Origin: a virus
Taxonomy: Duplodnaviria > Heunggongvirae > Uroviricota > Caudoviricetes
Direction: 5' to 3' (one strand)
Length of the DNA: 34,061 nucleotides
IMG/VR virus record: IMGVR_UViG_2734482587_000013
Part shown: positions 6,975 through 18,180 of the stretch, one piece after another
Layout: each line of letters starts with the position of its first letter
Numbering within the stretch: the first letter of the stretch is position 1
Notes under the pieces: model-generated
Seen by the model: the letters and a program-made list of their open reading frames with translations, nothing else
Databases searched by the model: none
What the model was told of the DNA's origin: nothing
Position numbers and translations under genes: made by a program

Positions 6975-7667
6975 TTAATTGTGTCGCTTAAGGGTTTGTG
7001 ACTGACTGATTAAGACCTTTCCAAAGACCATAAACCGGTGTTCGTTTTCGCTGGTAATTCCCCATTCGCGGTAAATCTGATTATCAGAAATTACCAGCAG
7101 TTTATCAGGTATCATTTGCAGTCGTTTGACGTAAATTTTATCATCAAAACCAAATACATATATACCATCCCCATCAAACTGATTGATACTGATATCAACG
7201 AAGATGAGATCTCCTGGCTCAATGGTTGGACACATACTGTCCCCACGAACGTTGATAACTTTAATGTGATTTGCTGGTCGTCCACCAAACATCGATACAG
7301 CATTATCAGTTCTGTATTCAATGGCATGAATCACATCAATGACATCACCGCCCTGGATAAGGCCATTTCCCGCACTGGCACTGACATCCAGCATTTCAAT
7401 ACGGAATACATCCTTCACCTGCGCAACATCCTCACTAATACTGTTTTTACATACAGTATTACTTTTGAGGTCTGAGGTAAAGAGATCAGCAATATCAACA
7501 CCTAAGCTCCTGGCAATATTACTCAGGGCTTGTTCAGTGAATTGTTTCTGCTTACCTGTTTCGAGGCGCGAGATATTCGCCGCATCCACTCCTATTGCTT
7601 CAGCGAGATCGGCGATTTTCATGTTCTTCGCCTGGCGAAGTTGTCTGACTCGATTTCCTATGTTCAT
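6975..7667 (-). CDS. CI-like immunity repressor (N-terminal XRE-type HTH plus C-terminal S24 LexA-like autopeptidase domain)
   Basis: HTH segment IADLAEAIGVDAANISRLETGK; S24 catalytic Ser/Lys context (VRGDSMCPTI ... IYVKRLQ). No SD before the ATG, consistent with a leaderless pRM-type mRNA as in lambda cI. Confidence 0.8.
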   Translation of the reverse strand: MNIGNRVRQLRQAKNMKIADLAEAIGVDAANISRLETGKQKQFTEQALSNIARSLGVDIADLFTSDLKSNTVCKNSISEDVAQVKDVFRIEMLDVSASAGNGLIQGGDVIDVIHAIEYRTDNAVSMFGGRPANHIKVINVRGDSMCPTIEPGDLIFVDISINQFDGDGIYVFGFDDKIYVKRLQMIPDKLLVISDNQIYREWGITSENEHRFMVFGKVLISQSQTLKRHN

Positions 7668-13433: not shown

Positions 13434-14429
13434 GTGACCGTGAGAGCACTACTGACCCCTGAAATTGCCCCGCGTATGGGGATCGTATTGTTCAGGCCAG
13501 GTTCAGAGCTGATGCCCCTGTTTATGCAGGGGCGTGTCCTGCTGGAGCCTGAGCCGGAACGTTATTCATCTTTCGCCAGTGGTGCCGTTCCGGCGGCATC
13601 ACAACCGCTGGCGGATGATCCTGCCGTTCGGGCCGTGTTCCGCAATGAGGCAGTGATCCGTCGTGCTGGTGGCGTGGAATGTCTTGAAAGCTGGTTACTT
13701 CGTGAAAAAGGCTGCCAGTGGCCTCATTCCGACTGGCACAGCGAGAACATGACAACAATGCGACACGCGCCGGGCGCAATCCGTCTGTGCTGGCACTGCG
13801 ATAACCAGCTGCGCGATCAGTTCACGGAACGGCTGGAATCAATGGCAACGGATAACTGTGCCCGCTGGGTGTTGTCTGTTGTGCGTCGGGATCTCGGTTT
13901 TGATGATAGTCACGTTGTGACAATGCCGGAACTGTGCTGGTGGCTGATTCGGAATGACCTGGCGGATGCCTTACCGGAAAGTGCAGCCCGTAAGGCACTG
14001 AGATTACCGAAGCCTGTTGTGCCGTCTGTCACCCGGGAAAGTGACCTTGTGCCTTCGGTTCCTGCCACCAGCATCATCCAGGATAAGGCGAAAAAGGTGC
14101 TGGCGCTGAAAGTGGATCCGGAGTCGCCGGAGTCTTTTATGTTACGCCCAAAACGTCGCCGCTGGGTTAATGAAAAGTACACGCGCTGGGTTAAGACACA
14201 GCCGTGTGCATGTTGTGGAAAGCCCGCTGATGATCCCCACCACCTGATAGGTCACGGTCAGGGTGGAATGGGAACAAAAGCGCATGACCTTTTTGTGTTG
14301 CCTTTGTGCAGAAAGCATCACGACGAGCTGCATGCGGATACCGTGGCATTTGAAGAGAAGTATGGCTCCCAGCTGGAGCTGATATTTCGTTTTATCGATC
14401 GTGCGCTGGCAATTGGCGTGCTGGCCTGA
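13434..14429 (+). CDS. DUF968-family protein with C-terminal HNH-like Cys/His motif (YdfU-like); start codon uncertain
   Basis: C-terminus [43 protein letters not shown]; common position before Q in lambdoid prophages. Confidence 0.55.
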
Positions 14430-14446
14430 TTTTGTGGAGAAAGTTG

Positions 14447-14812
14447 ATGCGTGATATTCAAATGGTTCTTGAACGTTGGGGGGCATGGGTGGCAAATAAT
14501 CACGAGGATGTCACTTGGTCGTCTATTGCTGCAGGATTTAAAGGACTAATCCCTTCAAAAGTAAAATCCCGCCCGCAATGTTGTGACGATGACGCGATGA
14601 TCATTTGTGGATGCATGGCTCGCCTGAAAAAGAACAACAGCGATTTGCACGATTTATTAGTGGATTATTATGTAGGTGGTATGACGTTTATGGCGCTTGC
14701 CCGTAAACATGGGCGTTCTGATTGCTGGGTTGGGCGTTTATTGCAAAAGGCTGAAGGTGTAGTTGATGGCATGTTAATGATGTTAGAAATTGAGCTAGAG
14801 ATGGATCGTTAG
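14447..14812 (+). CDS. Q: Late-gene antiterminator Q (phage 21/82-type family)
   Basis: Internal ATG at 14447 preceded by GGAGA; product [18 protein letters not shown]... with Cys-rich segment [16 protein letters not shown]; located just upstream of the lysis region. Confidence 0.7.
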
Positions 14813-14853
14813 AAGACCTCTTATTGAGAGGGTAATTGAATCAGTTTAATGTG

Positions 14854-14894
14854 TGGGGAGTCGATTTATTCTCCCCATTTTATTTAATTAATTT
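14854..14894 (+). terminator. Intrinsic terminator downstream of Q
   Basis: TGGGGAG-(10 nt loop)-CTCCCCA followed by TTTTATTTAATTAATTT. Confidence 0.5.
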
Positions 14895-14896
14895 AC

Positions 14897-15343
14897 TTAA
14901 GGTTTTAATTCATCAAGACGTTGTTGGATAGTGTTTTTGCTTGCGTTGTCTGTTATAGCCATTTGTTGTACTTGCCCCATTGCCATTTGAGTTTCCATCC
15001 ACATATCGGCCCACACTTTTGTATCGTTATTAACTTGAGCGATAGTAAATCTGACTTTTGATACCGGGGTTGTTGAATAGGCATTGCCGATTAACATTTG
15101 TCCAAAAACAGCAGACCCGCCTTCCAGTTCTTTACCACATATAACACTGCTGTTATCCGCGTTGTAAATTATCAACCCTCTACTATTGCAGTAATTCACA
15201 AGGGCATCTTTGACTTTATCTTTTGTCGTATTTTGATAAACCCCCTCAGGTTTTCCTGATTGAGTTTTCTTTATCAATGGTACGGAAGAAGTACAACCTG
15301 AAATGATAGTTGCGCTAAGTAATAGTACAGTCATTTTATTCAT
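14897..15343 (-). CDS. Lipoprotein of unknown function (moron on the opposite strand between Q and the lysis genes)
   Basis: N-terminus MNKMTVLLLSATIISGCTSS: signal peptide with lipobox ISG|C. AT-rich; opposite orientation to the flanking phage genes. No resemblance to Bor or Cor that I can see. Confidence 0.6.
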   Translation of the reverse strand: MNKMTVLLLSATIISGCTSSVPLIKKTQSGKPEGVYQNTTKDKVKDALVNYCNSRGLIIYNADNSSVICGKELEGGSAVFGQMLIGNAYSTTPVSKVRFTIAQVNNDTKVWADMWMETQMAMGQVQQMAITDNASKNTIQQRLDELKP

Positions 15344-15408
15344 GTTTCTTATCCATTGTTAAGGGCATACCTACACAATTATTTTTATTGGAGATGAATA
15401 ATCAACCG

Positions 15409-15436
15409 TTTACAATCGTAAAAAATCAAATATGCT
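15409..15436 (+). promoter_or_regulatory. Candidate sigma70 promoter (TTTACA-16-TATGCT) about 35 nt upstream of an intrinsic terminator; possible pR'-like late promoter or small-RNA promoter
   Basis: Hexamers read from the sequence; coordinates are by hand and approximate. Confidence 0.3.
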
Positions 15437-15465
15437 GTTAAGAGTGGTTACTTCGCCACACAACT

Positions 15466-15491
15466 TAAACCCGCCGCTGAGCGGTTTTTTT
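15466..15491 (+). terminator. Intrinsic terminator (possible tR'-like) in the Q-to-lysis intergenic island
   Basis: AACCCGCCGC-TGA-GCGG followed by TTTTTTT; no + strand ORF ends nearby. Confidence 0.5.
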
Positions 15492-15613
15492 GTACCTGTA
15501 AACTTGGTGCAGTACAGTAAACACGCTGGTGGTCGTGAATACTGACTTTTTATCTTGCTGGCTTTTTAGACAAGAGTTATTGGTATGTCATGTTAACCAG
15601 AAGGGAAAAAGAC

Positions 15614-15817
15614 ATGCTAAAACAGCAAGATATGACAGAAACCGCCGCCGCAGTCCTTCATTTCTTACCTGCTGACAAGTGGGTAACGCCACGCATGATG
15701 ACGAGAACTACCGGAGTAAGCGAAGCCCGGTGCCAGTTAATACTGACTCAGTTAGTTCTGGCGGGTCTGGCGAAGGATAACGGTGGGTACGGGAATAAAT
15801 TCAGACGCTGCCAGTAA
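15614..15817 (+). CDS. Small hypothetical protein (67 aa from the internal ATG), possibly a small DNA-binding regulator
   Basis: ATG at 15614 preceded by AAGGGA with about 8 nt spacing; lies immediately upstream of the orphan methyltransferase. Confidence 0.4.
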   Translation: MLKQQDMTETAAAVLHFLPADKWVTPRMMTRTTGVSEARCQLILTQLVLAGLAKDNGGYGNKFRRCQ

Positions 15818-15967
15818 TGGCGGTTTCCTGCTGTGAAAATGGGCGGCTGGTGGGTGTTGGTAGCACCTGCCAGCCATTCGCTCATGCTTACTGGTCACAA
15901 GCGAACCACGGCCCACTGCTTTAGCGCAAAAGCAGAGTGAGCCTACCAGAGTTACGCTTACTGATCC

Positions 15968-17020
15968 ATGAAAAATACTGTAAAAATAAACAGTGTTGAT
16001 TTAATCAACGCTGATTGCCTGCATTTTATTCAGTCCCTGCCTGATGATTCCATTGACCTGATTGTTACCGATCCGCCTTACTTCAAGGTGAAACCCAACG
16101 GTTGGGACAATCAGTGGAAAGGGGACGAAGATTACCTTAAGTGGCTGGACCACTGTCTGGCCCAGTTCTGGCGGGTGTTAAAACCTGCCGGAAGCCTTTA
16201 CCTGTTCTGTGGGCATCGTCTGGCATCTGATATTGAGATCATGATGCGTGAACGTTTCAACGTGCTTAACCATATCATCTGGGCGAAGCCGTCCGGACGT
16301 TGGAATGGGTGTAATAAAGAAAGTCTGCGCGCATATTTTCCTGCCACAGAGCGCGTTCTGTTTGCTGAACATTACCAGGGGCCATATCGCGGCAAAAGTG
16401 ACGGCTATGCGGCAAAAGAAAGGGAACTCAAACAGCACATAATGGCACCGCTGATATCGTATTTCAGGGATGCTCGTGCCGAACTGGGTATAACGGCAAA
16501 ACAAATTGCCGAAGCCACAGGTAAGAAAAATATGGTTTCCCACTGGTTTGGTGCCAGTCAGTGGCAGTTGCCGAATGAGGCTGACTATCGGAAGTTACAG
16601 GCACTGTTTTCCCGTATAGCGGCAGAGAAGTTTCAGGAACAACAACTGGAACAACCACACCACCAGCTGGTGGCATCTTATGATTCACTGAATCGCAAAT
16701 ATTCTGAATTGCTGGATGAGTTTAAATCTCTCCGGCGCTATTTCTCCGTATCAGTCTCCGTGCCTTATACCGATGTCTGGATGCATAAACCCGTTCAGTT
16801 CTACCCGGGTAAACATCCGTGTGAGAAACCTGCGGATATGCTCCGGCAAATAATCAATGCCAGTAGTCGACCTGGTGATCTGGTTGCTGATTTTTTTATG
16901 GGATCCGGTTCCACAATAAAAGCAGCAATGGCGCTGGGGCGTCGGGCCTTAGGTGTTGAGCTTGAGTCAGAGCGGTTTAACCAGACAGTGAAAGAGATAA
17001 ACGAGCTGGTGGGGAAATAA
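15968..17020 (+). CDS. Orphan DNA methyltransferase, N6_N4 amino-methyltransferase family (N6-adenine or N4-cytosine)
   Basis: Motif IV DPPYF near the N-terminus and the AdoMet-binding FxGxG motif (DFFMGSGST) near the C-terminus, with a long insertion (about 200 aa) between them. No restriction endonuclease gene adjacent. Confidence 0.8.
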   Translation: MKNTVKINSVDLINADCLHFIQSLPDDSIDLIVTDPPYFKVKPNGWDNQWKGDEDYLKWLDHCLAQFWRVLKPAGSLYLFCGHRLASDIEIMMRERFNVLNHIIWAKPSGRWNGCNKESLRAYFPATERVLFAEHYQGPYRGKSDGYAAKERELKQHIMAPLISYFRDARAELGITAKQIAEATGKKNMVSHWFGASQWQLPNEADYRKLQALFSRIAAEKFQEQQLEQPHHQLVASYDSLNRKYSELLDEFKSLRRYFSVSVSVPYTDVWMHKPVQFYPGKHPCEKPADMLRQIINASSRPGDLVADFFMGSGSTIKAAMALGRRALGVELESERFNQTVKEINELVGK

Positions 17021-17023
17021 TCT

Positions 17024-17051
17024 GGTGGCCACGTAGGTGGCCTTTTTATTT
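17024..17051 (+). terminator. Strong intrinsic terminator after the methyltransferase gene
   Basis: GGCCAC-GTAG-GTGGCC followed by TTTTTATTT. Confidence 0.7.
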
Positions 17052-17086
17052 CCATTACACAGCACCCGCATCTGCGAGGTGGGGTT

Positions 17087-17302
17087 ATGAAATCCATGGA
17101 TAAGTTAACAACGGGTGTCGCCTATGGCACCTCAGCAGGTAGTGCCGGGTACTGGTTTTTACAGTTGCTCGATAAAGTCACGCCCTCACAGTGGGCGGCA
17201 ATAGGTGTGCTGGGTAGTCTGGTATTTGGCTTGCTGACGTATCTGACAAACCTTTATTTCAAGATTAAAGAAGATAAGCGTAAGGCTGCGAGAGGTGAAT
17301 AA
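17087..17302 (+). CDS. S: Phage 21-type pinholin (S21-like), with dual-start motif
   Basis: [71 protein letters not shown] is near-identical in pattern to S21 holin as I recall it (71 aa; M1/M4 starts give antiholin and holin). Confidence 0.85.
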
Positions 17303-17492
17303 TGTCGCCATCATTACGCAAGGCTGTTGCTGCTGCTATTGGTGGTGGGGCTGTTGCCATAGCGTCTGTGCTCATCACTGGTCCGAGTGGTGACGATGGC
17401 CTGGAAGGTGTCAGCTACATACCATACAAAGATATCGTTGGCGTATGGACTGTATGTCACGGACACACCGGAAAAGACATCATGCTAGGTAA
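17302..17492 (+). CDS. R: SAR endolysin (R21-like lysozyme), 3' end lost in the sequence gap
   Basis: N-terminus [59 protein letters not shown]: signal-anchor-release domain followed by the start of the lysozyme catalytic region; runs into the N run at 17493. Confidence 0.8.
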
Positions 17493-17757
17493 NNNNNNNN
17501 NNNNNNNNNNNNNNNNNNNNNNNNNNNNNNNNNNNNNNNNNNNNNNNNNNNNNNNNNNNNNNNNNNNNNNNNNNNNNNNNNNNNNNNNNNNNNNNNNNNN
17601 NNNNNNNNNNNNNNNNNNNNNNNNNNNNNNNNNNNNNNNNNNNNNNNNNNNNNNNNNNNNNNNNNNNNNNNNNNNNNNNNNNNNNNNNNNNNNNNNNNNN
17701 NNNNNNNNNNNNNNNNNNNNNNNNNNNNNNNNNNNNNNNNNNNNNNNNNNNNNNNNN
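17493..17757. other. Assembly gap (265 N); no sequence information
   Basis: Continuous run of n; ORF-track entries across it translate as X and are artefacts. Confidence 0.99.
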
Positions 17758-18180
17758 ATCGTCTGCCTGTCGTGGGCGGTCAATCATTACCGTGATAACG
17801 CCATCGCCTACAAAGAACAGCGTGATAAAAAAGTCAGTGAGCTGAAGCAGGCGACCGCCACCATCGCTGACATGCAGCAGCGTCAGCGTGATGTTGCTGC
17901 GATCGATGCAAAATACACGAAGGAGTTAGCCGATGCGAAAACTGAAAATGAAACTCTGCACGCTGATGTTGCCGCTGGTCGTAAGCGCCTGCGGGTCAAT
18001 GCCAGTTGCTCCGCAGCCGTGCGTGAAGCCACCGGACCCACCAGCATGGATAATGCAACCAGCCCCCGACTGGCAGACACCGCTGAACGGGATTATTTCA
18101 CCCTCAGAGAACGGTTGATGACGATGCAGAAGCAACTGGAAGGGGCGCAGGAATATATCCGCACCCAGCGCATTAAGTAG
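17758..18180 (+). CDS. Rz: Spanin, inner membrane subunit Rz; 5' end lost in the gap
   Basis: ...[61 protein letters not shown]...[27 protein letters not shown] closely parallels lambda Rz as I recall it. Confidence 0.8.
17933..18118 (+). CDS. Rz1: Spanin, outer membrane lipoprotein subunit Rz1, embedded in the +1 frame of Rz
   Basis: [22 protein letters not shown]...[30 protein letters not shown]: lipobox plus Pro-rich region as in lambda Rz1; lies wholly inside Rz. Confidence 0.75.

Follow-up and report, generated by a model that had tools for sequence, protein, structure and literature searches.

Control of the late genes of lambdoid phages has been described in several systems, which differ in their Q proteins and in the signals around the late promoter. 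In lambda, where the elements are pR', the 6S RNA and tR', and likewise in SfV and Ayreon, a constitutive promoter produces a short terminated RNA and read-through depends on Q. The Q proteins of these phages belong to family PF03589, unrelated to the Q studied here, and their terminated RNA is longer than the one discussed below; promoter and leader of SfV and Ayreon are also of a different kind (TTGCAT-17-TAAGAT with a AACGATGGG pause motif). Phage 21 has a Q of family PF06530, and its elements succeed one another in the order -35 hexamer, Q-binding element (QBE), -10 hexamer, start, pause element and terminator, the RNA being about 50 nt long. Its QBE is composed of two 8-bp direct repeats, ATTGAGCA and AATGAGCA, at -27 to -12 (cf. 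10.1101/651190, where they appear in figures only; the sequences used here come from the phage 21 GenBank annotation), and its pause element is TAAGCT at +2 to +7.

Two further systems are closer to the locus presented here. The Shiga-toxin (Stx) phages H-19B, 933W and Sakai Sp5/Sp15 carry a PF06530 Q of the Q933 type, 144 aa long. The primary start of the Sakai pR' was mapped by dRNA-seq in lysogens (Sy et al., PMC7547250). The primary transcript measures 258 nt, is cleaved by RNase E at GU/AUU after +173, and is processed into StxS, an Hfq-binding sRNA (PMC7547250). In the DLP12 prophage of Escherichia coli K-12 and B, Q controls the lysis cassette according to Rueggeberg 2013, as cited in PMC7918800. 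Our literature search found no paper dealing with the DLP12 promoter sequence, and PMC6266700 gives no promoter-level detail.

Here we examine positions 15409-15491 of the window, by which we mean the whole stretch of 34,061 nucleotides that was analysed. This stretch is a lambdoid E. coli prophage, and its features around the segment of interest are collected in Table 1. An original prediction, made from the sequence of the window, had noticed on the + strand the hexamers TTTACA-16-TATGCT followed about 35 nt later by a GC hairpin and a T7 tract, and had proposed either a pR'/tR' unit or a small RNA. The letters are exactly those described, and 36 nt separate the -10 hexamer from the hairpin. 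We give a probability of about 0.87 to the reading that this segment is the late-operon control unit, that is, pR' with its Q-utilisation site (qut) together with tR', belonging to the Q gene at 14447-14812. The reading is built on the anatomy of the unit, which follows the element order of phage 21 with a predicted RNA of about 50 nt, on its orthology with a promoter whose start is mapped, on its linkage to the Q subtype and on the modularity of its terminator. Q, the unit and the holin gene at 17087 follow one another on the + strand, the order of a pR'-qut-tR' arrangement, and a terminator comes shortly after the start (+31 to +49), as it should in such a unit, but its hairpin is weak.

Table 1. 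Features of the window from the gene preceding Q to the lysis genes; positions in brackets are relative to the inferred transcription start.
Feature	Position	Strand	Details
DUF968/HNH protein	13434-14429	+	
Antiterminator Q, 121 aa from ATG	14447-14812	+	Pfam PF06530 (Q21/Q933/QuuD family)
Hairpin GGGGAG..CTCCCC and T-rich run, just 3' of Q	14855-14883	+	terminator-like site at 14855-14874
Inserted gene ('moron'), predicted lipoprotein of 148 aa, lipobox ..IISGC	14897-15343	-	phrog_3152, function unknown
Dyad TTTACAATCGTAAA	15409-15422 (-34 to -21)		6 of 7 pairs symmetric; left half is the -35 hexamer TTTACA
-35 hexamer TTTACA	15409-15414	+	5 of 6 consensus positions
-10 hexamer TATGCT	15431-15436 (-12 to -7)	+	4 of 6 consensus positions; aligns with TATCAT of H-19B and Sakai
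Inferred transcription start	A15443	+	A of TAAGAgtgg; 7 nt 3' of the -10 hexamer
5' stem-loop of the short RNA, GUGGU-UACUUC-GCCAC	15444-15459 (+2 to +17)	+	from folding
Intrinsic terminator, homolog of tR'	15473-15491 (+31 to +49)	+	hairpin, then T7
75-aa ORF	15590-15817	+	phrog_331
DNA N6/N4 methyltransferase	15968-17020	+	PF01555
Second intrinsic terminator, GGCCAC-GTAG-GTGGCC and T-rich TTTTTATTTC	17027-17052	+	6-bp GC-rich stem
Phage-21-type holin S, first lysis gene	17087-17302	+	PF04971, E = 2e-35
Endolysin and Rz	after the holin		

The signals of the unit were compared with shuffled sequences. The hexamers, separated by a 16-bp spacer, match 9 of 12 consensus positions in total, and 8 promoter-like sites this good occur in 5 kb (5.8 +/- 2.6 in shuffles). 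The hairpin GCCGC-TGA-GCGGT (15473-15485; 5-bp stem, 3-nt loop), accompanied by T7 at 15485-15491, forms five pairs at -6.3 kcal/mol (z = -1.4), 19 of 200 shuffles folding as well, and terminator-like sites number 12 in 5 kb versus 4.5 +/- 1.9 in shuffles. Since the scores of hexamers and hairpin each fall inside the shuffle range, as would be expected if promoter-like hexamers and a small hairpin had met by chance in AT-rich intergenic DNA, the case rests on comparison with related sequences. That comparison makes a chance meeting hardly credible: the left and right boundaries are sharp, thousands of E. coli genomes and many phages conserve the unit, and it is orthologous to a mapped promoter. 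The 14-mer TTTACRWWCGTAAA occurs at one site only in the 34-kb window, where 0.04 matches are expected; being a near-palindrome, it matches both strands.

The unit can be aligned, from -34 as far as the T-run, with those of H-19B, Sakai Sp5, DLP12 and O157. With hexamers and conserved leader in uppercase, the aligned sequences are TTTACAatcgtaaaaaatcaaaTATGCTgtTAAGAGTGGTTACTTCGCCAC..AAACCCGCCGCTGAGCGGTTTTTTT in the window and TTTACGatcgtaaaaatctgcaTATCATgaTAAGAGTGGTTACATTGCCAC..AACCCGCCGATGCGCGGGTTTTTTT in H-19B. The Stx phages resemble the window in their PF06530 Q (about 80-83% identity), in the dyad (TTTACGATCGTAAA, against TTTACAATCGTAAA in the window), in the 16-bp spacer and -10 register, and in the start context TAAGAGTGGTTAC, which is followed by a 5' stem-loop and by a first hairpin with its T-run. 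They differ by about 200 nt more of transcribed sequence and a second terminator, giving the 258-nt StxS precursor, whereas the window is devoid of the StxS body. In H-19B, moreover, the -35 hexamer lies inside the last Q codons and the Q stop codon falls in the spacer, while in the window, whose hairpin is weaker, a reverse-strand gene lies between the promoter and Q (121 aa). The transcription start can be carried over from this group: the 258-nt length and the GU/AUU site at +173 each independently fix the Sakai start at A746 of the Sakai Sp5 locus (L008), and this A aligns with A15443 of the window.

DLP12 offers the same layout, quuD being followed by nmpC on the reverse strand, the promoter, and essD, rrrD and rzpD. 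Its dyad is TTTACGTACGTAAA, its -10 hexamer is TATGCT, and its leader carries one substitution in the first 27 nt. The differences are that the insert is a porin gene, nmpC (interrupted by IS1 in strain B), that the unit stands directly 5' of the holin gene, with no ORF or methylase, and that the hairpin allele of K-12 and B (GAGCTGG) is degraded at a different base than that of the window. Judged by these alignments, the unit is orthologous to pR', the late promoter, of H-19B, 933W and Sakai Sp5 and to that of DLP12; this orthology and the position between Q and the lysis genes, on the same strand, support the pR'/tR' reading of the original prediction.

The extent and the spread of the unit can be read from its relatives. 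Among loci with close Q relatives, the sequence 5' of -34 differs in at least 12 ways, and the unit therefore begins exactly at 15409, the left coordinate of the original prediction. At least part of a 121-bp region is matched in 3727 of 5426 complete E. coli genomes, and annotation of the unit in RefSeq E. coli is absent among the matches listed. In an O157:H7 prophage the same unit is located 3' of a forward-strand CPBP protease gene, and the deposited genome of phage PhiR40_1 contains a unit identical to that of the window.

The Q gene of the window encodes a full-length member of PF06530, scoring well above the curated threshold (E = 1.8e-51; 173.5 bits, the cut-off being 26; all 118 profile positions covered), and it matches the Q21 structures 6P18 and 6JNX at E = 7.5e-9. 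Identity amounts to 82.6% with H-19B Q, 79-82% with the Q of Stx2a phages and about 33% with phage 21 Q. The window Q ends just after ..LEMDR; H-19B Q runs 23 residues further, overlapping its own promoter, and QuuD has a short C-terminal tail of other sequence. Because the tails differ among these three proteins, the C-terminal tail of Q appears to be dispensable and to be replaced wherever a gene is inserted.

Linkage between Q and the promoter was analysed from both sides. On the Q side, we sampled 80 loci with a Q 85-100% identical to that of the window, 66 of which had enough downstream DNA. All 66 contain TTTACRWWCGTAAA, with at most one mismatch, 486-2845 bp downstream of Q; in the approximately 5 kb searched upstream of Q in the Q-side loci it was never found. 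The promoter core is kept in 27 Q-side loci where the transcribed region after the -10 hexamer is different and forms no hairpin. One sub-group (L261-L297, for instance L263 at 7256-7340) has a Q 93-94% identical to that of the window and keeps promoter and dyad, with a leader beginning AGTGTCAGTTTGTATAAAAAC instead; no terminator is obvious nearby, and a 246-aa ORF and then the holin gene come after the leader. On the promoter side, viral contigs were scanned using the transcribed leader as anchor, and wherever a locus extended far enough upstream, a PF06530-type Q was present there in the same orientation. A scan of 596 Gb with the 16-mer TGWTAAGAGTGGTTAY used too short a query, nearly all matches being due to chance and coming from unrelated phyla, and the corresponding loci (L009-L128) were excluded. 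The pR'/tR' reading thus gains from both halves of the unit: the promoter core follows the Q subtype in 66 of 66 loci, and the terminator is shared with SfV and Ayreon, whose Q is unrelated.

The original prediction had considered it unusual for the unit to lie downstream of an inverted lipoprotein gene and not directly after Q. The survey contradicts this view: 0.6-2.5 kb is inserted between Q and the unit in about three quarters of 104 sampled loci, the two being adjacent in about one quarter, and DLP12 has nmpC at this place. An insert between Q and pR' is therefore the commonest layout in this Q family, and the arrangement of the window is not unusual. The inserts fall into 23 unrelated groups, one of which is represented by the lipoprotein gene of the window, whose product has no Pfam match. 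The hairpin just 3' of Q probably terminates the transcript of Q, at the border of the inserted cassette; the segment 14855-14883 is absent from other loci with the same Q type and a different insert. Nor is there support for the alternative late promoter directly downstream of Q, which had been proposed at 14824-14852. Its hexamer TAATGT matches 3 of 6 positions, the site is missing from the output of the promoter scan, the segment is part of the inserted cassette, and a start from it would land within the hairpin that follows.

Two observations concern the insertion site itself. Upstream of the unit, a promoter-like TTGATT-16-AATAAT on the - strand (15378-15405), suited to the lipoprotein gene, stands back-to-back with pR', its -35 hexamer just 4 bp from the dyad, so that the insert brings a divergent promoter up to the Q-utilisation site. 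In Ayreon (L002, 1813-1856 and 2492-2530), the shared hairpin is duplicated and flanks a forward-strand lipoprotein gene, which looks like a footprint of how such genes insert here.

A Q-binding element near the -35 and -10 hexamers had been anticipated, to be recognized by comparison with phage 21. The promoters of window and phage 21 have no sequence similarity. A candidate element overlaps the -35 hexamer, in the form of the dyad at -34 to -21. The odd base in the dyad of the window makes the -35 hexamer TTTACA, closer to consensus, and TTTACRWWCGTAAA is invariant downstream of Q proteins of the window's subtype. Upstream of the shared leader, the promoter region exists in at least six sequence types, each with a dyad centred at -28 or -27.5 and followed by an A or T tract; the six dyads are TTTACGWWCGTAAA, GCGTACGC, GCGGTCCGC, TGGAATTCCA, TTCGTTACGAA and TGTTATAACA (loci L129-L327). 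In 20000 shuffles, a dyad at least as long arose at the fixed position 6-9 times for type A, 45 for E, 75 for D, 131 for F, 313 for C and 420 for B. With Q clusters cut at 70% identity, dyad type and Q cluster correspond one-to-one across 104 loci and 23 inserts, cases with Q adjacent included. The neighbours of the dyad, insert on the left and shared leader on the right, are exchanged freely, and physical linkage alone thus cannot explain the match, which goes beyond linkage and therefore makes the dyads good candidates for the Q-binding elements of the subfamily. In form as well as in position, they depart from the direct repeats of phage 21.

A natural chimera helps to locate the specificity within Q. 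In one Q cluster, residues 1-49 are 94% and residues 50-120 are 46% identical to the window Q, and this cluster goes with a different dyad; specificity would therefore follow the C-terminal, helix-turn-helix half of the protein. We put at about even odds the general proposal that, in the Q933/QuuD-like branch, the QBE is a dyad centred at -28 with an A/T tract, overlapping the -35 hexamer, and that at least six interchangeable pairs of Q and dyad share one leader and terminator. If so, Q would bind with two-fold symmetry, its specificity being set by the same C-terminal half. A dyad-type Q-binding element was not described in the literature searched, which did not extend to the older H-19B and 933W papers.

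Downstream of the start, the family is held together by a common RNA. Typical members, 47-50 nt long and folding at about -18 kcal/mol, form a stem-loop at the 5' end (+2 to +17) and a terminator stem of 8 bp. The five pairs of the 5' stem are kept in 32 distinct sequences, one pair changing from G-C to A-U in two of them and to G-U in five. The sole candidate for a pause element is TAC(T/A)T(C/T) at +7 to +12: in the window it reads TACTTC, without the final T of a -10 element, and the corresponding position in H-19B is TACATT (4 of 6), which leaves TACTTC a weak candidate for a sigma-dependent pause element. TAAGAG, considered by analogy with the phage 21 element, was rejected; lying at -4 to +2, it is too far upstream.

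The conserved 5' stem-loop, its one compensatory pair and the U-tail of the terminator, together with the processing of the short Sakai pR' transcript into Hfq-binding StxS (PMC7547250), could also be expected if the unit were mainly a gene for a trans-acting sRNA like StxS, the RNA of about 50 nt being what is selected and antitermination a secondary matter. We regard this as improbable, as functional StxS is the 3' part of its precursor, after +173, whereas homology with the window covers the first 50 nt or so and diverges after the hairpin, with none to the stable 3' fragment of the 258-nt RNA. Furthermore, the promoter core tracks the Q subtype and not the RNA, as seen in the 27 loci with another transcribed region, and there is no Rfam match on the strand of the unit (Vault, E = 9.8). 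A permissive Rfam scan of 14300-17400 returned nothing credible; a match to the Enterobacterial sRNA STnc130, scoring 26 bits (threshold 55; E = 0.56) and on the opposite strand, was discarded. An RNA is thus part of the picture, as the original prediction had allowed, but it is best seen as a by-product transcript of the late-operon unit.

It had also been stated that no protein-coding ORF lies between the hexamers and the terminator, which is nearly right. A 37-aa ORF (15432-15545, + strand) overlaps the unit, starting inside the -10 hexamer and extending through the terminator; as its ATG is upstream of the inferred start, it is untranslatable from the pR' transcript. In PhiR40_1 (PV340560.1; L328, 1333-1446) this ORF is annotated as a 'hypothetical protein' CDS, which, its ATG preceding the transcription start, is almost certainly spurious.

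The terminator of the window is a weakened member of its family. Position 15485 is T, in place of the G of most relatives (GCGGT instead of GCGGG), which shortens the stem from 8 pairs to 5; the folding energy of the entire short transcript is -12.6 kcal/mol, compared with -18.3 in most relatives, with their 8-bp stem. About 20 loci, carrying several Q types, share this T15485 allele, and phage PhiR40_1 has it in identical form. Many phages with other Q genes, among them SfV, Ayreon, mEp460 and Stx2c phages, are homologous to the window from 15468 onwards, where the hairpin has its foot, and the records of SfV and Ayreon annotate the homologous hairpin as a terminator. Some relatives of the window unit have, at equal distance from the start, unrelated sequences composed of a hairpin and a U-run. 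These comparisons support the view that swapping of the hairpin between Q types represents the modular behaviour to be expected of tR'. As a minus-strand terminator, the hairpin was rejected: its reverse version is followed by GTTTAAGTTG, with no T-run.

How tightly such a hairpin would close the operon can be judged from Sakai, where the 258-nt transcript runs past a stronger homolog of it (PMC7547250). Polymerase passes that homolog at least partly, so that incomplete termination is likely at 15491. The next genes are the 75-aa ORF and the methylase, and it is plausible that they are somewhat transcribed in the lysogen. As the second terminator lies between methylase and holin, the lysis genes are placed behind two terminators and the ORF/methylase pair behind the weak one only. 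The second terminator, stronger than the first, would be a further obstacle to polymerase unmodified by Q and may act as the principal barrier ahead of the lysis genes; in SfV and Ayreon the site homologous to it carries a terminator annotation.

The weak hairpin, the passage of polymerase through its Sakai homologs (PMC7547250), the accessory nature of the next genes, an ORF and a methylase instead of lysis genes, and the second terminator before S would likewise fit an ordinary promoter with a leaky attenuator, from which, in the lysogen, the 75-aa ORF and the methyltransferase would be expressed with no need of Q. Such an explanation is very unlikely, even more so than that of a trans-acting sRNA: it leaves unaccounted for the match between dyad and Q subtype across 104 + 66 loci with varied neighbours, as well as the presence of the same promoter directly before the stx and tRNA genes in Stx phages and before essD in DLP12. 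Leak-through in the lysogen is, besides, compatible with a Q-dependent late-operon unit and no alternative to it.

Beyond the hairpin, the window shares with SfV and Ayreon a downstream module made up of the ORF, the methylase, the terminator and the holin gene, and its lysis genes are of the S21 type, as in phage 21. The endolysin ORF (17302-18180) includes a run of masked bases translated as X, its sequence being incomplete in the window. In Sakai Sp5 (L008, 1015-1125), a remnant of 37 codons from the 3' end of the same methyltransferase gene as in the window (VKAAMALGRRAIGVELES...) lies right after the tR' of the Stx2a prophage, which suggests that the Stx phages derive from a layout like that of the window.

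Under the late-operon reading, and on the model of known lambdoid Q systems, sigma-70 RNA polymerase would start constitutively at A15443 from TTTACA-16-TATGCT, producing an RNA about 48-50 nt long that carries a stem-loop at its 5' end, and part of the polymerase would stop at 15473-15491. After induction, Q would bind the promoter dyad, inferred here to be its candidate binding element, and would load onto polymerase while sigma holds an early pause. The modified polymerase would then pass the first terminator, the 75-aa ORF and methylase, and the terminator at 17027, and go on into S, R, Rz and the remaining late genes.

Orthologous to elements of a well-studied kind, the unit is ordinary, and it lies where its Q family normally has it. 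For the window itself, recognizing it places the start of late transcription and explains a layout in which Q, an insert, pR'/tR', the ORF/methylase pair, a terminator and the lysis genes succeed one another. It also points to an annotation problem, the unit being missing from RefSeq E. coli and covered by an almost certainly spurious 37-aa CDS in at least one phage record of GenBank. Experiments might be worthwhile only on the Q-type-specific dyads and on the weakened terminator allele: natural pairs of Q and operator, and terminator alleles of reduced strength, are material for tests of DNA recognition and of leakage in lysogens, within a promoter family shared with the element that controls Shiga-toxin expression.
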